A stretch of DNA of 60,000 bases, counting the filler, from Hausera hauseri (Eukaryota): assembly GCA_046269625.1 (NCBI GenBank). It is 12 parts of 12 records of this genome, joined end to end, with 100 filler letters (N's around TTAATTAATTAA, not from the genome) between each part and the next. Parts side by side here need not be neighbours in the genome. Positions count along the whole stretch, not along the records: positions 41,208 to 46,386 come from JBJURY010315052.1; 11 more parts are not named here. The stretch is one strand, 5' to 3'. The translations under genes and the position numbers were made by a program. The notes under the pieces are model-generated. The model had not been told where the DNA came from, searched no databases, and was given only the letters and a program-made list of their open reading frames with translations. Below, piece by piece: positions 17,486-60,000 of this stretch (position 1 is the first letter of the stretch; the number at the start of each line of letters is the position of its first letter).

Positions 17486-18397
17486 ATAATGTGTTACCAA
17501 CTAACGAAGCAAACATTTGACACTAAGCGCAGGTTAAAAAAACAAAAAAAAAGGTATAGCAACCAAATAGCAGCAGTGCTATATCGAGCTAACTCATTTC
17601 CATGACAGTGATAAAGAAATATTACTCTGAAAAGTCACCACATTCTTTATAAGCGGTTTGCTAGTTATTTTATGTTATGTTAATGAGCCATCCTCACTGC
17701 ATATCACATTAACTCTATAAGTGTTCCAAACTCATGGCTAATGGCAACAGGGGTAGGAAATATGCTGCAATCAGATAATATTGTTAGTACTGAAGAAAGA
17801 AAAACGACGATATAAACATATTCAAGCAACAACAAAAAAAATGNNNNNNNNNNNNNNNNNNNNNNNNNNNNNNNNNNNNNNNNNNNNTTAATTAATTAAN
17901 NNNNNNNNNNNNNNNNNNNNNNNNNNNNNNNNNNNNNNNNNNNAATCAGAAAGAATTAAGGCACTGGCTAGGACTTTGTGGATATTACGCAACTTATGTG
18001 CCAGATAACTCGAAAATCAATGTCTCTTTATATCGCTTACTTAAAAAGGGAATCAAGTGGAAATGGACAGACGTCGAACAGAAAGCCTTCGACGAAATGA
18101 AGAAAATTTTAACAAGTGAACCTGCTTTGCGATATCCAGATTTTAACTTATCTTTCATAATTAAGACCGACGCCAGCTACCGTCATACGTATACTGTCGA
18201 CAGTAGTGGCTAAGGACCAAAAAGATTGAGACGCATTCTTGGAAAAAACTCAATTTGCAATTAATACCACACCAAACCCAGCGACAGGATTCACACCATT
18301 TTTCATGATGTATGGACGTGAAGCCGTGCTACCCACGGACTTAGGAATGGTGCCATACGCAGTTAATACCGAGGACTTATAACAGAATTTTGCAGAA

Positions 18398-20041
18398 ATG
18401 TTACAAACGCGATTGCAAAAGTGTTGGGAAATCGCTAAGGAATTATCCCGAGAATATCAAGAACAGTTCAAGACGCAATATGATAAGAGAGCAAAACCGC
18501 ATGATATAGAACAAGGAAATTGGGTTTATGTGCATTATCCAGTAGCCAAAAAAGGCACCTCGCTGAAATTAACTCGCACGGGTAGAGGACCCTATGCAGT
18601 CACCCGAGTGACGCCGACTACAGTATATATCAACAAGAATGGAAAAGAAGAAGTTGTATCAGTACAGAGGGTTGTCAAGACGGAAATACGACCCAATAAA
18701 CGTTACAGTTTACGCCAGCGAAAGATAAAAACTTCTTCAATAGTTACTAGATCGATATCTTATGTACAAATAGTATTAGCCTTGTCATTAATTGTTTCGT
18801 ATATACCTACAGTGAAAGCAAGCGCCAAACAAAAGGATATCCGGAATTTACAGACACTCAGAATACGGGACATGGATTGGAGAAAGCCATGTGCATGGTT
18901 CGAATCAGATCGTCCTATTCAGAGACACATAGGATTTCAGATAACATTTATAACGACTGGAAATGAAATGAGTGTATTCGATTTTCCATACGGACACCAT
19001 AGGAGATGCTGTAACCTAGAATTCGGGAAAGTCTATAAATATAGCTTCCAGCCATTTTATTTATATAAGTTTGGAGCTCAAGCCGACATAGCCTCAGAGC
19101 TCACAATACAAATGCCACAGCAAAAGGACACTAATCAGGAAAAGACGAACGAGATAATTCGAAGCACTGATCCGATCAACAGACTCTTAGATGATAATAT
19201 TATTGGAATTCACGAGGATTTGAGAAACCAATGCATTCGGATTAAGACCAAATTTGGATTACCGGAAGACAAGGAAATCTTAGTCCAGTTTACGCCATTT
19301 AACACTTCTATTCCTAGACCGGCGTATTGTTCGTTGGCAAAGCGACGTCCCACCGTATGCTGTGTAATACAATTTGGACAAATGTACCAACTACAATTTG
19401 ATTTGTACGATACTTATCCATGTGAACGAAGTGTTTTCTTAAGAGGATATCGCCCAAAGAACGGAATATGGGAACTTCCACTTCCCACCACTACGAGAAA
19501 ACCATCCACGACGCCGAGTACAACTCGCAGTATTACGATTATCACTACGAACGAAATGTTAGGAAGTATACCGGTCAAAATCCTAACGAAGGGCGACAGA
19601 ATTCTATTCTACGCTGAAGAAACTTTAAATAAAGACGTCAAAATTGAGTGTCGCACCTTGCATACTAACCCAGTTGTGATTTTGAAAAAGAATAGTTTGG
19701 GAACGGTGTACAAATCGTTACGACCACAACATGAGCATATAATCAGAATGACCGCGGAGGGTAAGAACCCTAAAACCTTTACAGTACGAAATCTTGGTAG
19801 TAAAATTGTAGTAATGTCGTATAATGATATTAGTACTCGAAACGTGTTCACGACGCAAAGTTCTACTGAACCGAGTAATTTACCAATAATAAATATATTT
19901 GGTGTGTCAATTTCCGTTCTTGTCATAATAACAGCGATGACTGTTCTAGTCTCCAAAAATTGTAATAAACGCGGTAAAAATCGAAAGGGAGATAATTGGG
20001 AAAAAGGCAACCTAGACGGACTTTATGATAGCATAACCTGA
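18398..20041 (+). CDS. Integrase C-terminus fused in frame to signal peptide, three FN3-like modules, Thr-rich stalk, TM and a short Tyr-motif tail
   Basis: Hydrophobic SISYVQIVLALSLIVSYIPTVKAS from 18752; CCNLEFGKVYKYSF / CCVIQFGQMYQLQF / KSLRPQHEHIIRMTA; PTTTRKPSTTPSTT; TM IINIFGVSISVLVIITAMTVLVS; tail ends LYDSIT. The FN3 call is by motif only. Confidence 0.75.
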   Translation: MLQTRLQKCWEIAKELSREYQEQFKTQYDKRAKPHDIEQGNWVYVHYPVAKKGTSLKLTRTGRGPYAVTRVTPTTVYINKNGKEEVVSVQRVVKTEIRPNKRYSLRQRKIKTSSIVTRSISYVQIVLALSLIVSYIPTVKASAKQKDIRNLQTLRIRDMDWRKPCAWFESDRPIQRHIGFQITFITTGNEMSVFDFPYGHHRRCCNLEFGKVYKYSFQPFYLYKFGAQADIASELTIQMPQQKDTNQEKTNEIIRSTDPINRLLDDNIIGIHEDLRNQCIRIKTKFGLPEDKEILVQFTPFNTSIPRPAYCSLAKRRPTVCCVIQFGQMYQLQFDLYDTYPCERSVFLRGYRPKNGIWELPLPTTTRKPSTTPSTTRSITIITTNEMLGSIPVKILTKGDRILFYAEETLNKDVKIECRTLHTNPVVILKKNSLGTVYKSLRPQHEHIIRMTAEGKNPKTFTVRNLGSKIVVMSYNDISTRNVFTTQSSTEPSNLPIINIFGVSISVLVIITAMTVLVSKNCNKRGKNRKGDNWEKGNLDGLYDSIT

Positions 20042-41207: not shown

Positions 41208-44200
41208 GCAAAGGTATCCTTGTATTGTTTTAATATTTTAACTATTCCTTCCTTCTCCCCATCTGTTAGGGTACTATCCTTGCCAAACAAGTCGAAATCA
41301 TTCCAATTAATTGGAGTTTTAACAAATTTTGTTATTTTCTTCTTTTTATCAATATGTCCTTTTAATCTATTTATAGGTTTTGTTTTAAATCGTATGCCAC
41401 ATTCCTTTTTTGGACTCTGCCGTTGTTTTTCCATAAAATCGCACAACTCTTGTACAGTGGAGATAATGGCTTCTGTTGCCTTATTGCCTATATCTTTTAT
41501 AATATACACATAGGCAATTCTTGTACCTTTTCTAAGAATTTTGGGCTTGTTTGAAACATTGGCTATCCGAATAATCACTTGTTGTTCACGGATATTATCA
41601 ATTGTATGAGCTATCCATAATTCGCTCTTGTTCATAAAATTTATATTTGGCTCTATATAAACGTCACCTTCATATCTTTTTTCCACCACTGCTTTAAGTA
41701 CAACTTCTGTTCTGGCTGGAATCAGTACGTCTTCTTTGATAGAGACTGTATCCCTCTTCTCTCTTTTCATCTGTTGAAAAGGTTGAATTTGCTGAGTTTC
41801 TAAATGAATACACATGCCTTTCAGTTTTGCCAACGCATCACAACCAAGTATGGCTTCTGCTACTAATTCATCTGCTATTCTAAATTTTTGTTCGAATTTT
41901 CGATTCGTAATTTTAGTATAACATTTTATTATATCTCGTACTTGTACCTTTGTTCCGAAAGCGCCAACATTCGTAAGATCTTCTGTGGGTTTCTGTAACT
42001 TTTTCTTTAATTGCTCTGGCAACTGTTTGCGAGAGATCATCGAAGCCAATGCTCCTGTGTCTATTATTGCAGTAAGAGGATATCCGTCTATCCAAATTAC
42101 TACTCTTGGAATTACTTTTCCTCCATCTATACTTGTTATCAAAGCCTCTTTTGGGGCCGTTGGATAAAATTTGAGTCTCACGTGCTTCGGATCGTAGTTA
42201 TCTACATCACTAGAACAATGTATATCTATATATTCATTAGGAGACATAAAACATTGTTGTTCCATTGGATATTCACTCCATTGTTTCATTTGGGGAATAT
42301 CCGAAAGTAAGGTTCTTTGTTTCTTACTTCGAGCAGTGATTAAACTCCATGTCTTTTTAGTATGTTCAAGTGATTGAGGTTTTATTTCCTTCACCTTCTT
42401 AGTCGAGTTTATTGGAGATTCATCGTCATCGTTATTTGAATCATTCTTATTTTTCTGCTTCCATTCAGCGTCCTTTTTCATTAGGAAACAGCTAGCTATG
42501 AATGGAATTACGGCGTAGATGATTTTCCATGTACATCCAACAGCTTGTTTTATACCATATCCTTTTGTAATCATAGTTAAAATTGCTTTTATAAAGGCAA
42601 AAATATAATAAAATCCCAACCATCCAGAATTAAACTGACCAAACCACATGTACCATCCCCATGCGGTTGCAAATATATCTTTAGCAATTCGTTTTGCATA
42701 ATCGGGTCCCATTAAGTTTTCCCAATTAGCTTTTCCATCATGATCAGCTAATACTTTCATAGTCATTTCCGTTAGGACTTTTTGTCTTTGCTGAGGAAAC
42801 ATCATCATTCTTCTATGATTTTCCATGTCTTGTTCTGAGTATACTCCCATCTTTACTAGATCCGTCAATGGTTTATATGTTTGTTCGGTCTTCAAGTTAA
42901 TAAGACTAATTCTACGCGGCGGCGTAATCTGTTCCCTTTTTGGCATTCTTACCCAAAAATTATCGCTCAGTCTAAATGCTGGCGACATTGTGTATGTACA
43001 ATTTTGATGTATGTATGGTTTTTCTGTCGGGTCCAACAATATCCGAGTAATTGGTTGTAAAAATCGTGGTTTCTCTTTATACCAAACAGGTAACTCCATA
43101 GTGCAGTCCGTGGTTGGTCTTAATTTGACTGCTACCTTCGTGCACTCAAAGGTAACGAGTGTTTCTCCCATTGTTCGTGCAAATTTTCCTTCCGCATCTG
43201 GCGATTCAGCTGGATCTTTTATCACTCCATCTGTTATTGTTGATAAATAGATTCGGTTTCTAATTATCTCTCTATTTAACTTACAGTCGTTTAATATTAT
43301 TTCTCGGTACATGGCATAAATATTTTCTTGCTGGAAGTAATAAATGAAATCGATTTTATTATCGAAATACAAGTGGGGTTTCACTTCTGATTTATCAATT
43401 TTCTTCTTAGCTTTTAGTATCTCTGTGGTAGATAAAAATATTCCTTTATAATTTGTTCGGAATACAGTTTGATCACATCTTCTGGTATCACTTTCCAGTT
43501 TGAATCTCATACCATCCTGAGGATTCGCTAAATATACTACAGTGGGAGTTTCAATCATATCCGATACTCGATCTAATCTACTCTTAGATATTTCCTCTTT
43601 ATACACTCGTCCTTTTGTTTCATTAAACTTTCCTACCTTTAACAAAGCTAACTGACATTGGTCCCGGTCAACTTCATATGACATAATTGATTCACCAGTG
43701 TCGCATTCTTTATTATAGTAATCACATTCAGGAAATGTCATCATCTTTCCTGAAGATAGTTCGAAAAGGGCATCATACTCTCTCAGCTCGACTTGATAGT
43801 CTTCAATAGCCACTATATTATCTAAAATTTCACCGTTGATATTATAAGACTCACCCTTACAATATCCTGTCTTGTCGATTGTTCCAGCCACAAAAATTCT
43901 TTTATTGATAATTTTCCCTTTCTGAGCTTTCAGTCTAATATTACCAATATTAATCTGTTTTGTCACGAAAGCCTCTATGCACATCCTCTTGCTTATAGGA
44001 AGTGGTTCAAACGGAGTAGTTGGTTCGACTATTGCCGAATTTCGATACCAGTAACCACAAATGAAATGGAAATGATTTTTTCGAACAAAGCATTCCTTTA
44101 CTTTAGTTTTCATAAACTCCGACTCTTGATAAACGTAATATTGTTTTTCTGGTATTATAGTTAATGACGCTGGATTAGCAAATGGGCATTTCTCTAGTTT

Positions 44201-44974
44201 TAATAAAGAATATATTGGACCCTCCTTTGCTTGACTACAATCATAAGCGATAATCGAGAGAGCCTTTGGCATTAGGCTAAACAGAAGGAGTATAGGTATA
44301 ACCTTAGTTAACCAGGATAGATCAAATTCTGGTTGTGGATTTCGTTGAATTTCCGATTGTTGAGGTGGACGATGTTCTGTTCGTTGTTGCATGATTGGGG
44401 CTGATTCGTGTATTGCCGTATGAACCAAGCTAATAATCCAACCACCTCTACATTTTACCCATCCTTCAACATTAGCCTTTAACGCTCTCGTAGCGATTTC
44501 TATATTTCTCTCTATCTCTTCTTGATTCGGATTTACACTGTTCATTACTATTATTTTATATAAGAGATAGGACATTGCTGTCACAATTTTATTTCGGGAT
44601 ATGCCAGTTCCCATCATTCTGGATAATATATCTCTTTCCTGGATTTCGTTTATCCTTTCATCTGTAGGAATATCTGCAAATTGTTCACTAATCTTTGCAA
44701 TTTCATTTCTAATACTTTGCATTAATAAATCCGGTATTTGTAGATTGGTATTAAACTCAACAAATGCATTATGCATTCTTGCTAACAGGGTTTGAAATAG
44801 TGTTGTAAGTGATACATTATCTACGTCATATTCGTCCTCCGTTGTTAGTAATCTTTGGACAACTTCGTCATCTCTAGCTTTTCTGCCTTTCAACTGATAA
44901 AGTTTCGTTGTTCCTTTTGGTCTACCACGGTTTCTTTTATCCGTTTGTATTTGCTCTGATATAGGCATATTCAT
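41208..44974 (-). CDS. Polyprotein: AT-hook, helical region, signal peptide, chuvirus-like glycoprotein, TM, retropepsin, pre-RT linker (frame open from 45121)
   Basis: RNRGRPKG; signal WLTKVIPILLLFSLMPKALS|IIAYDC (mature start 44254); Cys-rich ectodomain; WGWYMWFGQFNSGWLGFYYIFAFIKAILT..WKIIYAVIPFIASCFLM (to 42479); AIIDTGALAS (Asp at 42061) and EAILGCD; LTDGEKEGIVKILKQYKDTF. Confidence 0.9.
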
Positions 44975-45054
44975 TCCGGCTTCTACTTGTTCTTGTTGTT
45001 GATGTTCAACTTCTTGTGCCTCTTTTGGTCTAACATCAGTATATATCTCATCAA

Positions 45055-46386
45055 TTATCTCTTGTTCGGTCTGTTTGTAAGTGATGCATACAGGATTATA
45101 TCGGTTTCCCAGATACCTACTTCATATAAGGTTTCATAGTCCATCAGCGTTCGCCCATAGAAGCGTAACTCTAATTCTCCTTGGGGTTGACTTATTTCGT
45201 TAATTTTATGTTTCAACATATCTATTGTATCCAACGATCTCATCCTGAGAGCATGGAAATCTTGATTATATTGTTGGAGAGTAACTATTACTTCGGGGTT
45301 TTCTCCAACTGTCCTCACTCTATCTGCATATCGATAGATTATATACCGTACGATATTTTGATAAGGACTCGTACCGGCAGCATATATTAACAACAAGTCC
45401 AATAAATCAACAAATTGTTGATGGTTAATCGTTGGCATTAATAACATAGATAAATCTTGTCTAAATCGATTGCCATCAATTAATTCTTGGTTGTTATAGC
45501 TAGCTATTTTGCGAACTATTTCTACGCCATTCTGATCTAAGTCCACAGACGAAGATTCATAACTTGGAGATTTCTCCTTTATCTTCTTTTTCCTTATCCT
45601 TTTTATCTTTTCTTTAGGTTCATTTTCTCTGCTTGATTCACTTTTTTCACTTTCACTACCTGTAGATAAGTTGAGTTCTGGGGTTTTCAATTCTTCTTCC
45701 TGTATCAAGGGTTTATCTTTCTTTTTAACCCTTTTCTTCTCGACGTCCGATTCCGATGCGGGAGTCTTTTTGGGTCTACCGATGGGAGCGATGACTGAAT
45801 TTTCATCATTTATTTTCTGTCTTTTCTCACAAATTTGTTGCTCCTTTAGTTCGAAATACAGCTGTTTTAATTCAGCTATCTTATCTTCATCTTCTATTGT
45901 ATTAATCTTACTTTCTTTCAATTTAGATCTGATCTTTTGTTGAAGTTTTTCTATAGTATCTTCGGGTTCTGTGTCAGTGGTTTCATGTTCTTTATCTGTG
46001 TCAGATATATTTCCAATCATTTCGACCTGCTTCTTCCTTTGGTTTGATTGTCCTTGATTAGGGCAGGAACGAGCCATATGTCCATATTTTTGAAATGAAA
46101 AACATAATGGCTGTCCATCTTGATTAACCGGAGGCTTTCTCTTGGCAGATTTCTGAGGTTGGTTTTGCCAAGAAACCTTTTTCTGCTGTTGTTCCGGTTG
46201 GCTAGAATACTTCTGAAAAGGCTTTTGCTGAAAATTTTTCTTTTGTTGAAAATTTTTCGGCTTCTTGTCATCACTTTTGGGATGCTTTTTAATATTCTCG
46301 AGTCTTTCATAATTGACTTCGATTTTTCTGGCCTTACTGACGGCTTCTTTGTAAGTATCCGGATCTGCAACGATAATATAATTTTG
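45055..46386 (-). CDS. Gag C-terminal part, degenerate zinc knuckle, charged linker and ubiquitin-like domain (open from the contig edge)
   Basis: Frame is open from 46386: PDTYKEAVSKARKIE (gypsy capsid end), CFSFQKYGHMARSC (CCHC knuckle with the 2nd Cys as Phe), Ubl LRMRSLDTIDMLKHKI..LRFYGRTLMDYETLYEVGIWETDII at about 45294-45085. Confidence 0.85.
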   Translation of the reverse strand, partial: QNYIIVADPDTYKEAVSKARKIEVNYERLENIKKHPKSDDKKPKNFQQKKNFQQKPFQKYSSQPEQQQKKVSWQNQPQKSAKRKPPVNQDGQPLCFSFQKYGHMARSCPNQGQSNQRKKQVEMIGNISDTDKEHETTDTEPEDTIEKLQQKIRSKLKESKINTIEDEDKIAELKQLYFELKEQQICEKRQKINDENSVIAPIGRPKKTPASESDVEKKRVKKKDKPLIQEEELKTPELNLSTGSESEKSESSRENEPKEKIKRIRKKKIKEKSPSYESSSVDLDQNGVEIVRKIASYNNQELIDGNRFRQDLSMLLMPTINHQQFVDLLDLLLIYAAGTSPYQNIVRYIIYRYADRVRTVGENPEVIVTLQQYNQDFHALRMRSLDTIDMLKHKINEISQPQGELELRFYGRTLMDYETLYEVGIWETDIILYASLTNRPNKR

Positions 46387-52020: not shown

Positions 52021-52099
52021 AAATTTTGAAAGAATTTGGGTACGATAAATTTGACTTTGACTTCAATGACTATTAATTCATATTGGCTTACAATCATTT

Positions 52100-53000
52100 T
52101 GTCGAATCTACTTTCAGCTGTTGACAAAACATATAATTATCGCTGCACATGAATTGTGGTGGGGCCCGAGTCCGCGGCACCACAATTTCTGCTTGTAGAG
52201 AACCTGCCATCTGGATAATGTCATGTGACACATTTACTTGTGATTGCACATCAGACACTACCTTTAACATGCTTTCTTTGCAGATAGCCCAGGTAATGCA
52301 TTTGGATGAGATAGCAGCGGGTTGTTCGTCTTCATTGACATATGGTTCCTCCAATATAGTTCCTTGGAGTACGGTTGTTTCCCAATCAAACGACAACTCG
52401 TCATTTGCAGGTGCATCACTGTCGATGACTATGAATTCCTCAGCCGTCATTGAGTTGTCATATTCAAGATGCAGTCCAAGTATGAGTTCTGTCAGAGTGA
52501 GATCATCCTCATCCTCCTCTATGGTCTGCACTATGTCTTGAAAACCACATCTTGCGAAACAGCGTTCAATTGTTGAAGCCTTGATGTAACGTACATCATC
52601 TCTAATCCAGTAGCATACATCCAGGATAGAGTCAGACTTTGCCAAGCCGTCACCCGAAGTCTGTGTGTCAATGGCACTCCCAACACAGCGAAGATGGGAT
52701 TTTTGATAAATCATTTTCAAGCCTTGTATTATTCCCTGGTCTAGTGGCTGCAGCAGGGCTATAGTATTTGCGGGTAAAAAGAGAAGCTTGACATTTCCGA
52801 AGTGGCTATCGCTCACATGAGAGTGAGTGTTGCCAATAATGAGTAAAACACGGCGGCTCGACCGGTGCATCTTATCGCTGAATGACGATAACCATTCGCG
52901 GAACAGTAAACATGTTATCCTAGCCTTTTTGTTCCATCTCCAGGTTACATATACCGTTACAAGATTCTTGAAGCTGCGGTGTGAATACGACTTTCCAATG
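52100..53000 (-). mobile_element. pogo/Tigger (DDE_1) transposase C-terminal part; one catalytic Asp appears lost
   Basis: WRWNKKARIT..RRVLLIIGNTHSH (LxxDN read as GN)..VKLLFLPANTIALLQPLDQGIIQGLK..TIERCFARCGF. Confidence 0.9.
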
Positions 53001-53295
53001 ATCAGTGACAATAGGTAGATGAGAGCACGCAGCACTACCCTCGGAGGAAAAATTGATGTGGTTCGCGGATGAGTCATGGGGTAGAAAAAACGATACACGC
53101 ACGCACTATTAATAGGGCGGTGATGGGAGACACACAGTTACGAGAGTGATACCAGAAGCAGGCGTACTGTACGGTTTTTAAATAGGTGTGCAAATTCGAA
53201 TTTGGCGCTCAAAATTTTCTGTTTAAATAATGGTGGTTTGGTATAAATATGGGTGTGCAAATAGCATGGCGTTGTTTTAACAAATAGTACGACAA

Positions 53296-54959: not shown

Positions 54960-57900
54960 AAACGAACGAAAAAACGAACGAACGAACGAATGAATCAACG
55001 GAAGAACGAACGAAAGAATGAATGATCGAGAGAACATATGAACGACCAAAAGATCGAAAGAACGAACGAAACAGCGAAAGAACGAAGGCAGGAAGGAACG
55101 AAAGAACGAAAGAACGAACGAACGAAAGAACAAATGAACAAATGAAAGAACGAATGAACAGTGGTAAGAACGAAAGAACGAATGAACAGAGGAAAGAACG
55201 AACGAACGAACGAATGAGAGAACGAAAGAACGAAGGAACGAAAGAAAGAACGAACGAAGGAAGAAACGAACGAACGAAAAAACGAACGAACGAACGAATG
55301 AATCAACGGAAGGACGAACGAAAGAACGAATGAACAGAGGAAAGAACAAAAGAAAGAATGAACGATGGAACGAACTAAAGAAAGAACGAACTCACGAATG
55401 AATGAAAGAACGACTGAACGAACTCACGAAGAAACGAACGAAGGATCGAAAGAACGAAAGAAAGAACGAAGTATGAAGGAAAGAAGGGAAGAATGAACGA
55501 AAGAATGAAAGAACGAAGGAATGAAGGAACGAGCTCACGAAAGAACGAACCAAGGAACGAAAGAACGAACGAACGAACGAAAGAAGGAAAGAACGAATGA
55601 AGAAAGGAAAGAAAAAAATGACGGACGAACGAACGAACGAACGAAGGAAGGAGCGCACGAACGTACGAAAGAACGAGCGAAGTAACGAAAGAACGAAAGA
55701 ACGAATAAATGAACGAATGATCGAACGAACGAACGAACAAATGAGAGACACAAAAGAACGAGCGAACGAAAGAAAGAACGAACGAACGAAGAAAGGAACG
55801 AACGAAAGAACGAACGAACTAACGAATGAATCAACGGAAGAACGAACGAAAGAATGAATGATCGAGAGAACAAATGAACGACCAAAAGATCAAAAGAACG
55901 AACGAAACAGCAAAAGAACGAAGGCAGGAAAAAACGAAAGAACGAAAGAACGAACGAACGAAAAAACAAATGAACGAATGAAAGAACGAAGAAACGACCG
56001 AATGAATGAACGAACGAACTCACGAAAGAACTCACAAACGAACGAAAGAACGAATGAACAGAGGAAAGAACGAAAAAACGAACGAACGAACGAATGAATC
56101 AACGGAAGAACGAACGAAAGAATGAACGAAAGAACGCACGAACGAACGAACAAACGAACTCACGAACGAACGACCGAACGAATGAAAGAACGAATGAACA
56201 AAGAAGTAAACGAAATAAAGGACGATCGAACGAACGAAGGAAGGAAGGAGCGAACGAACGTACGAAAGAAAGAACGAACGAAGGAAGAAACGAACGAACG
56301 AACGAATGAATCAACGGAAGAACGAACGAAAGAATGAATGATCGAGAGAACAAATGAACGACCGAAAGATCGAAAGAACGAACGAAGCAGCGAAAGAACG
56401 AAGGCAGGAAGGAACGACCGAATTAATGAACGAACGAACTCACGAACGAACTCACGAACGAACGAAAGAACGAATGAAAAGAGGAAAGAACGAAAGAACG
56501 GACGAACGGACGAACAAAAGAACGAACGAACGAACGAACAAATGAACGAATAAAGGAATGAAAGAAGAAAGGAACAAACGAACGAACAAATGAACGAAGA
56601 AACGAAAGAACGAGTAATCTAAAGAAAGAATGAAGGAAGGAATGAAGTCACGAATGAACGAACGAATGAAGTAACGATCGAACGAACTCATGAAGAAAGG
56701 AACGAAGGAACGAAAGAACGAGCTATTGAACGAACGAAAGAAGGAAAGAAGGAACGAAGGAACGAAAGAACGAACTCAAGAATGAACGAAAGAACGCACG
56801 AACGAACGAACAAACGAACTCACGAACGAACGACCGAACGAAGGAAAAAACGAATGAACAAAGAAATGAACGAAATAAAGGACGATCGAACGAACGAAGG
56901 AAGGAAGGAGCGAACGAACGTACGAAAGAAAGCACGAAGGAACGAGAAAACTAACGAAAGAAAGAACGAAAGAACAAATGACAAAACAAAGGAACGAACA
57001 AAGGAACGAACGAAGGAACGAACGACCGAACGAACGATCGAAAGAAGGAGCGAAGGAAAGTACGAACGAAGGAACGAACGAACGAACGCACGAACGAACA
57101 AACGAACGAACGAACGAAGGAACGAAAGAACGAAAGAACGAACGAAAGAACGAATGAATGAACGAATGATCGAACAAACGAACGAACGAATGAGAGAACG
57201 AAAGAACAAAGGAACGAAAGAACGAAAGAAAGAACGAACAAAGGAAGAAACGAACGAACGAAAAAACGAACGAACGAACGAATGAATCAACGGAAGAACG
57301 AGCGAAAGAATGAATGATCGAGAGAACAAATGAACGACCAAAAGATCGAAAGAACGAACGAAACAGAGAAAAAACGAAGGCAGGAAGGAACGACCGAATG
57401 AATGAACGAACGAACTCACGAACGAACGAAAGAACGAATGAACAGAGGAAAGAACGATAGAACGAATGAAAGAAGGAACGAACTAAAGAAAGAACGAACT
57501 CCCGAATGAAAGAAAGAACGACGAAACGAACTCACGAAGAAACGAACGAAGGAACGAAAGAACGAAAAAAAGAACGAAGGAACGAAGGAAAGAAGGGAAG
57601 AATGAACGAAAGAATGAACGAACGAACGAAGGAAGGAAGGAGCGCACGAACGTACGAAAGAAAGAACGACGGAACGAACAAACGAACGAAGGAAAGAACG
57701 AACGAACGAACGAACGAATGGAAGACCGATTGAAGGAACGAACAGACGATGGAAAGAACGAAGGAACAAACGAAGGAACGAAAGAACGAAAGAACGAACG
57801 AAAGAACGAAAGAACGAAAGAACAAACGAAAGAACGTATGAATGAACGAATGAATGAACGAATGATCGAACGAACGAACGAATGATCGAACGAAAGAAGG

Positions 57901-60000
57901 AAAGAAGGAACGAATGCACGGAAGAACGAACTCAAGAATGAACGATAGAACGAAAGAACGCACGAAGGAACGAACGAGCGCACGAAGGAACGAACGAAGG
58001 AACGAAAGAACGACGGAACGAACTCACGAAGAAACGAAAGATGAAACGAAAGAACGAAAGAAATTACGAATGAACGAACGAAGGGAAGAATGAACGAAAG
58101 AATGAACGAACGAACGAACGAACAGAAGAAAGAACGAAAGAACGAATGAAAGAGGGAACGAACTAAAGAAAGAAAGAACTCACGAATGAACGAAAGAACG
58201 AAAGAAGGAACTCACGAAGGAACGAAAGGACAAACGAAGGAACGAACTCACGAACGAAGGAAAGAACGACCGAACGAACGAAATAAAGAACAATTGAAGG
58301 AACGAACAGACGATAGAAAAAACGAAGGAACAAATGAACGAACGAAAGAACGAGCGAAGGAACGAAAGAACGAAAGAACGAAAGAATGAAGGAAAGAACG
58401 AATGAATGAACGAATGATCGAACGAATGAGAGAACGAAAAAACGAAGGAACGAAAGAACAAAAGAAAGAACGAACGAACGAAGAAACGAACGAACGAACG
58501 AATGAATCAGCGGAAGAACGAACGAACGAATGAATGATCGATAGAACAAATGAACGACCAAAAGATCGAAAGAACGAACGAAACAGCGAAAGAACGAAAG
58601 CAGGAAGGAACGAAAGAACGAAAGAACGAACGAACGAAAGAACAAATGAACGAATGAAAGAACGAATGAACAGTGGAAAGAACGAAAGAACGAATGAACA
58701 GAGGAAAGCACGAACGAACGAACGAATGAGAGAACGAAAGAACGAAGGAACGAAAGAACGAAAGAAAGAACGAACGAAGGAAGAAACAAACGAACGAAAA
58801 AACGAACGAACGAACGAATGAATCAACGGAAGAACGAACGAAAGAATGAATGATCGAGAGAACAAATGAACGACCAAAAGATCGAAAGAACGAACGAAAC
58901 AGAAAAAGAACGGAGGCAGGAAGGAACGACCGAATGAATGAACGAACGAACTCACGAACGAACTCACAAACGAAGGAAAGAACGAATGAACAGAGGAAAG
59001 AACGATAGAACGAATGAAAGAAGGAACGAACTAAAGAAAGAACGAACTCACGAATGAACGAAAGAACGACGGAACGAACTCACGAAGAAACGAACGAAGG
59101 AACGAAAGAACGAGCTATTGAACGAACGAAAGAAGGAAAGAAGGAACGAATGAACGAAAGAACGAACTCAAGAATGAACGAAAGAACGCACGAACGAACG
59201 AACAAACGAACTCACGAACGAACAAACGAACGAAGGAAAGAACGATTGAAGGAACGAACAGACGCAGGAAAAAACGAAGGAACGAATCAACGAACGAACT
59301 ATCGAAAGAACGAGCGAAAGAAAGAAAGAACTAAAGAACGATTGAACGAAAGAACGCACGACCGGACGAACTCACGAACTCACGAACTCACGAACTCATG
59401 AACGAAAGAACGAATGAACAGAGGAAAGAACGAAAGAACGAATGAAAGAAGAAACGAATTAAAGAAAGAACGAACTCACGAATGAACGAAAGAACGACGG
59501 AACGAACTCACGAAGAAACGAAAGAAGGAAAGAAAGAACGGAAGAAAGTACGAAGGAACGAAGGGAAGAATGAACGAAAGAATGAACGAACGAACGAAGG
59601 AAGGAACGAAATCACGAAAGAACGAAGGAATGAAAGAAGGAACTCACGAAGGAACGAAAGAAGGAACGAAAGAAAAAACGAAGGAACGAACGAACGAACG
59701 AACGAACGAACGAACGAACGAACGAACGAAAGAACGGACGGACGAACGATCGAACGGACGAAGGAGCGAACGAATAAAGGAACGATCAAAGGAACAAACG
59801 AAGGAACGATCTAAAGAGCGAACGAAAGAATGAACAAAAGAACGAAAAAACGAATAAACGAAGGAACGAACGAATGAGAGAACGAAAAAACGAACGAAAG
59901 AAAAAAGGAACGAAGGAAGAAACAAACGAACGAAAAAACGAACGAACGAACGAATGAATCAACGGAAGAACGAACGAAAGAATGAATGATCGAGAGAACA
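54960..60000 (+). repeat. Degenerate (GAAC/GAAA/GAAT/GAAG)n tetranucleotide satellite with higher-order blocks
   Basis: More than 5 kb of strongly purine-rich AACG-type units; marker ATGATCGA(G/T)AGAAC at 55022, 55858, 56338, 57314, 58534, 58850 and 59986. Confidence 0.97.

Follow-up and report, generated by a model that had tools for sequence, protein, structure and literature searches.

Cargo cassette of a compact Burro-like Ty3/gypsy Gag-Env-Pol element from Hausera hauseri, with a ubiquitin-like domain fused to a helix bundle as a probable docking module

Burro/GYPSM1 elements are giant planarian gypsy-like LTR retrotransposons, for which the accessible text of Arkhipova and Yushenova (2019, PMC6431247) gives Gag, CCHC knuckles, a Ubi2/SUMO-like domain, a BCL2-like domain, an in-frame mononegavirus-like Env, a protease and a dUTPase-like domain. 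A preliminary description of the locus treated here had named extra domains between gag and pol in Burro, correctly so, as the Ubi2/SUMO-like and BCL2-like domains are published at this place in the same text. The IAP cargo domain of Burro1 is reported, second-hand, to protect planarian stem cells (PMC13465017, accessible part). GAG-ENV-POL errantiviruses with an HSV/gB-type Env were described from Platyhelminthes, Nematoda and Bryozoa (Chary and Hayashi, PMC13524379, accessible part). The layout reported below is already published for planarian Burro, and the present element is, judged by its domain order, a compact Burro-like relative.

The window, i.e. the whole stretch of DNA that was analysed, comprises 60,000 nucleotides of spacer-joined contigs from Hausera hauseri (GCA_046269625.1). 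Positions 41208-46386 are one 5179-base contig, the ends of which fall inside Gag and before the reverse transcriptase. Two long frames were found on its minus strand: a Gag frame, which enters at the contig end and stops at 45055, and an Env frame, which opens at 45121 and continues to the other end. The element reads in the order Gag, helix bundle, ubiquitin-like domain (Ubl), AT-hook, Bcl-2-like domain, gB-type Env, protease and dUTPase-like stretch, with the features as follows (P0002 is a sister copy).

46051..46386, minus strand: C-terminal part of Gag, truncated by the contig end; 80-84% identity to P0002
~46104-46063, minus strand: zinc knuckle in Gag, second Cys missing in the window copy; the P0002 knuckle scores zf-CCHC
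45532..46050, minus strand: charged low-complexity linker with 39 K+R and 39 D+E among its 173 residues
45769..45780, minus strand: AT-hook-like motif 1, GRPK, kept in P0002
~45310..45522, minus strand: five-helix domain directly ahead of the Ubl, from the P0002 model
45074..45294, minus strand: Ubl, beta-grasp, lacking Gly-Gly and with Arg in place of Ile44; its last strand is encoded in the Env frame; from Pfam, PDB matches and the P0002 model
45055..45121, minus strand: overlap of the Gag and Env frames, containing the break; from the frame map and P0002 alignment
44903..44944, minus strand: AT-hook motif 2, core RGRP at 44929-44918; 14/14 residues identical in P0002
44426..44824, minus strand: likely Bcl-2-like domain behind the AT-hook; BH2-like GGW retained, BH1 (NWGR) degenerate
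44249..44326, minus strand: internal hydrophobic signal segment on the N-side of Env, from a hydropathy scan; the PF24664 match begins here
42479..44248, minus strand: gB-type Env (class III, chuvirus/mononegavirus-like), PF24664 E=1.8e-80
42625-42569 and 42535-42479, minus strand: Env hydrophobic segments, from a hydropathy scan
42152..42166, minus strand: YP/PTAP motif in the Env tail directly ahead of the protease, either resembling a late domain or marking a site where the protease cleaves
41816..42109, minus strand: retroviral-type aspartic protease, PF00077 E=1.1e-9
41492..41746, minus strand: dUTPase-like stretch after the protease, a weak call (a PDB search at E<=10 gave 4 matches, each of them a dUTPase, with E 0.21-1.7)

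The element is a multi-copy, envelope-bearing retroelement of the Ty3/gypsy type, and the copy in the window is broken and dead. Contigs of at least 80% likeness to it numbered 21,823 in run X1, which may be the source of the window itself, and 2,491 in run X2. Its Env, gB-type by the PF24664 match, is a trait in common with the GAG-ENV-POL gB-type errantiviruses; it also shares with Burro the succession of Ubl and BCL2-like domain before Env and of a dUTPase-like stretch after the protease, the BCL2 and dUTPase calls being weak. Elsewhere in the window, neighbouring contigs bear a gypsy RNase H relic (PF17917, 50923-51705) and a DDE_1 transposase relic (52097-53137), positions 54960-60000 hold a purine-rich tandem repeat of ~5 kb with 8- and 12-base steps, and plus-strand frames of 383 and 552 codons (1057-2208 and 18383-20041) gave no Pfam match at E<=0.01.

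We read the stretch between Gag and Env as the cargo cassette of a compact Burro-like Ty3/gypsy Gag-Env-Pol polyprotein, in which the bundle-fused Ubl is likely a non-conjugated docking module for host proteins and not a stand-in for budding ubiquitin; the probability of this reading is put at roughly 0.55.

The identification of the Ubl as a real, non-conjugatable ubiquitin-fold domain in the cargo of a Burro-type element is very probably right. Compared with PF00240, it scored E=4.6e-5 at 23.5 bits, just missing the curated cut-off of 25.4, and in a PDB sequence search (E<=1) ubiquitin-fold proteins made up 60/60 among the matches listed (best 60 of 72), the identity to ubiquitin-fold structures being 14-20%. 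The model of P0002, whose Ubl is 77% identical to that of the window, consists of a five-helix bundle and a beta-grasp (pLDDT 89), the latter with the beta-beta-alpha-beta-beta arrangement and ~1.5-2 Å from ubiquitin. A C-terminal Gly-Gly, as a conjugatable modifier carries, was absent from 9/9 aligned family Ubl domains, and none of 17 Gag-Env linkers contained an LRGG-type motif. At the Ile44 position the nine domains have R, H, T, T, D, D, Q, W and I, with Ile in one of them and Arg in the window, and the hydrophobic patch expected of a ubiquitin mimic for ESCRT was thus not found.

In the preliminary description, a ubiquitin-like peptide without terminal Gly-Gly and an AT-hook had been assigned to 44910..45294. 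The peptide is present on the minus strand, with the Ubl starting at 45294 as it said; the alignment with ubiquitin agrees with the PF00240 and PDB matches, the missing Gly-Gly holds throughout the family, the profile search and fold prediction returned a beta-grasp, and the domain is conserved in related elements. Its last six residues (after 'VGIW') turned out to be an off-frame translation. The interval does contain the Ubl and the AT-hook, which lie in different frames here, but misses the neighbouring helix bundle and Bcl-2-like domain.

Relatives were collected with the Env frame, which gave 979 proteins at E<=0.001; from the best 150 of these 979, 15 proteins were examined together with P0154. 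This search yielded P0001, a full polyprotein of 3700 residues. A DNA pattern derived from Env returned 17 metagenome loci, of which two proved genuine elements, L006 and L010 (P0001 lies on the latter), with no LTR pair within either sequence as retrieved; viral-contig and genome-contig collections gave no relative. L006, absent from the first profile building, scored E=5e-14 with the Ubl profile and 2e-17 with the Bcl-2-like profile. Under leave-one-out testing, the Ubl profile still found both repeats of P0001 as well as P0006, P0007, P0010 and L006; the window and P0002 were recovered only weakly (E 0.2-0.3), and P0026 was missed.

An Env tree of 24 rows contained a clade of 11 (support 95/93) that holds all carriers of a Ubl, Bcl-2-like domain or AT-hook; the Ubl occurs in 7 members, and the other 4 begin too near Env to judge. 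Outside this clade, P0009, P0015 and P0020 likewise possess a knuckle, a linker and this type of Env, yet carry no cargo. A reverse transcriptase tree of 8 rows was compatible with the Env clade, without settling P0006 and P0014. The cargo is modular, as P0001 carries two bundle-Ubl units and no Bcl-2-like domain was found in P0006 or P0007. The cassette was likely acquired within one sub-lineage, after the envelope, its modules being duplicated or lost singly.

Further features were observed in the relatives. A separate downstream ORF in L010 (12085-13470) and L006 (10617-11384) matched a DEDD-type exonuclease (PF00929, E=0.001 and 0.003, under cut-off), and exonuclease-like stretches were seen by eye in the Gag-Env linker of P0010 and at the start of P0016. 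In P0001, P0005, P0006, P0154 and L006 the open frame continues past the integrase into a second signal-plus-transmembrane protein. Protease-like domains are repeated in tandem in P0154 (as many as 7 stretches), P0007, P0003 and P0005, along with C2H2 fingers and ankyrin repeats that lie between Env and reverse transcriptase. P0006 (HBK71150.1) is filed under a Flavobacteriaceae MAG as a hypothetical protein and is probably a eukaryotic contamination of the bin.

The Ubl is one half of a two-domain unit and not free-standing, and its helical half lies outside assigned families. In the P0002 model the helices span residues 2-12, 18-29, 35-39, 42-49 and 56-72 at pLDDT ~90, and the bundles of window and P0002 are 72% identical. 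A bundle profile recovered held-out P0001 (E=2.6e-5), P0007 (0.0013) and window/P0002 (0.04), but not P0006 or P0010. Pfam and PDB sequence searches gave nothing relevant for the helical part; one bundle repeat matched calmodulin (E=0.018), which was taken as chance. Atlas features for the bundle-Ubl reached a maximum score of 0.84, i.e. lead level only, and word-index searches with bundle-Ubl alignments returned seeds only (3 among 7993 longer candidates, 0 among 958 of near length), which is weak evidence.

Both AT-hook motifs lie where the preliminary description had sited them, GRPK at 45780-45769 and RGRP at 44929-44918, the latter as a core with basic flanks. No Pfam AT-hook match was reported for the window; the 14/14 residues of motif 2 shared with P0002 compare with 60% identity in the linker preceding it. 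A similar motif occurs in P0005, P0007 and P0008, and AT-hooks were found in 5/17 linkers, with ~0.01 or less expected in each (linker shuffles yielded <0.01 RGRP/GRPK motifs); four carriers of bundle or Ubl have none.

The domain behind the AT-hook is likely Bcl-2-like, on the basis of sequence profiles and a structural model. It matched PF00452 at E=0.00077 (under cut-off), and the Bcl-2-like profile matched Bcl-xL at E=0.025. A Foldseek search with a model of pLDDT 49.8 returned the Bcl-2 family in 42/42 among the matches listed, at E>=0.04 and none <=0.001, and the VIA comparison was a tie. The domain is 89% identical in P0002.

Other roles of the Ubl were weighed against docking of a non-conjugated module. 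It is unlikely that the Ubl brings the polyprotein, or its products, to the proteasome or p97, as in ubiquilin/Rad23, for turnover of Gag, or that it serves as a decoy for host ubiquitin/SUMO enzymes. An early family profile did match ubiquilin UBLs best (E=7e-5), but a better alignment matched ubiquitin and ISG15 first; moreover, Rpn10 and Rpn13 bind via an Ile44-type patch, which is mostly lost here, and proteasome docking leaves the fixed fusion to the helix bundle unexplained. In favour of such a link, Burro bears further domains of the ubiquitin system, MATH and BIR (PMC6431247, accessible text).

That the Ubl is a passenger, i.e. a captured host sequence with a spacer or folding role only, is quite improbable. 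Rapid divergence (the family Ubl domains are mutually 13-28% identical) and the enveloped relatives that do without a Ubl would fit a passenger, but a fold-compatible sequence is retained across elements with Env only ~35% identical, and the Ubl was duplicated jointly with the helix bundle in P0001. Identity to P0002 is also 72-82% here, compared with 47-62% in three of five stretches of the linker (the other two 80 and 92%), which in P0002 counts ~600 residues between Gag and Env.

The preliminary description had proposed a built-in budding signal accompanying the captured envelope, the Ubl acting as a ubiquitin mimic that brings ESCRT to Gag. The Ubl does lie together with Gag ahead of the Env signal segment, where it would be cytosolic, none of the 17 Gag-Env linkers contains a late motif, and fused ubiquitin is able to replace late domains, a rescue that requires L8 and I44 (PMC2958808, accessible part). 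The proposal is nevertheless highly doubtful, given the Arg that replaces Ile44 in the window, the Ile retained in a single family domain, the three Ubl-less relatives with the same Env (P0009, P0015, P0020), and the motifs in the Env tail: PTAP, YPxL or PPxY occurred there in 7/13 elements vs 1.2 expected from shuffles (P0003 and P0016 were dropped, having no anchor), and the window copy has a PTAP. A Tyr-Pro motif, chosen after data inspection, lay <=50 residues ahead of the first protease in 8/13 elements vs 1.6 expected, namely in the window (42166-42152, overlapping PTAP), P0005-P0009, P0015 and P0020. Retroviral-type protease prefers Tyr-Pro cleavage sites, and the motif may be a late domain or such a site. 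As a budding signal the Ubl would matter little, since the evidence points against it.

Another long shot is that the bundle is a captured domain of the TFIIS N-terminal type (TND, LEDGF-IBD-like) and forms, with the AT-hooks, an element-encoded, Gag-borne tether resembling LEDGF. The helix pattern recalls that of TFIIS. TNDs are five-helix bundles (PMC9987994), and LEDGF, a five-helix TND/IBD joined to AT-hooks, tethers HIV integrase (PMC5053271, PMC9987994; accessible parts of both). Were it true, the integration complex of the element would be steered by such a tether to AT-rich, transcribed chromatin, with no host cofactor needed. The reading is held this low because no TND/IBD match was obtained by sequence or fold, the structure-comparison lists being filled by Ubl matches, and because AT-hooks are absent from the four bundle/Ubl carriers.

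P0002 follows the Gag frame to residue 427 (~45106) and then the Env frame from its residue 6, gapless and 82% identical to the window over the Env frame, so that the break of the window copy falls within the Ubl, at about 45110-45105 and ahead of the last strand. Env stands in frame between Gag and Pol in P0002, P0001 and L006, with one break in the window copy, and the length of the site varies in 7 X1 contigs and 1 X2 contig, which are not all the contigs covering it. A programmed -1 frameshift, yielding a short Gag with the Ubl at its end and, less often, the full polyprotein, was rejected as scarcely credible, for although the Env frame is -1 relative to the Gag frame and the overlap contains a GGGAAAC heptamer, this heptamer does not sit in the phase that a slip from the Gag frame would require, six relatives (P0002, P0001, L006, P0006, P0007 and P0010) are open across the site, other copies vary in length there, the zinc knuckle of the window copy is damaged as well, and the shift would remove the central last strand of the Ubl.

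The loss of Ile44, the enveloped relatives without Ubl and the late motifs in Env tails together lead to the preferred reading, in which the bundle-Ubl serves for docking and never undergoes conjugation. By the topology of the polyprotein, Gag and the cassette, which precede the Env signal segment, would remain cytosolic, and the element protease would cut Gag and the cassette pieces apart. Carrying the basic linker and AT-hooks, the bundle-Ubl piece might then enter the nucleus and grip AT-rich DNA and chromatin or ubiquitin/SUMO-system proteins, possibly holding the incoming complex to chromatin by analogy with MLV p12. The Bcl-2-like piece would stay anchored in the membrane by the Env signal segment at its C-terminus and could dampen host cell death, and particle release, if any, would proceed via the motifs in the Env tail.

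Among known systems, integral Ubls (ubiquilin/Dsk2/Rad23, coronavirus nsp3, pestivirus inserts) likewise place a beta-grasp within a longer protein. Coronavirus nsp3 contains a Ubl, and the pestivirus inserts are true ubiquitin, cleaved by host enzymes after Gly-Gly; the latter differ from the element Ubl, which has neither Gly-Gly nor Ile44 and only its 14-20% identity to ubiquitin-fold structures. MLV p12, itself inside Gag, tethers the incoming complex to chromatin (PMC5053271, accessible part). With p12 and LEDGF/p75 the element has in common a Gag-linked basic segment and AT-hooks beside a five-helix bundle, the likeness of this bundle to the LEDGF/p75 TND/IBD being one of helix count and pattern only. 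The errantiviruses of Chary and Hayashi share the Gag-Env-Pol order and the gB-type Env, and the Env rows of Smed_errantivirus_1 and _2 (PMC13524379, supplementary file 3, accessible part) resemble the window Env by eye, unscored; ubiquitin, Bcl and AT-hook have 0 mentions in the accessible text and searchable supplement text of that paper, figures aside. The literature searched yielded no mention of the bundle-Ubl fusion, of AT-hooks in these elements or of cargo modules being gained and lost, while primary papers, figures and supplements may contain them. Burro/GYPSM1, compared by its published description, is one polyprotein with the same order minus bundle and AT-hook; the accessible text of PMC6431247 mentions no five-helix domain fused to the Ubl and has 0 occurrences of 'AT-hook'. 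No MATH_TRAF, Smc, BIR or ankyrin match was obtained in the 5.2 kb contig; ankyrin repeats, a Burro feature, occur in P0154 (4844 aa), of the same Env clade as the window element. Burro is giant, whereas the linker of the window element is much more compact, and this family packs the Ubl/Bcl-2-like cargo known from Burro into a small and modular layout, whose natural relatives with two, one or no copies of each module offer ready comparisons for cargo function.
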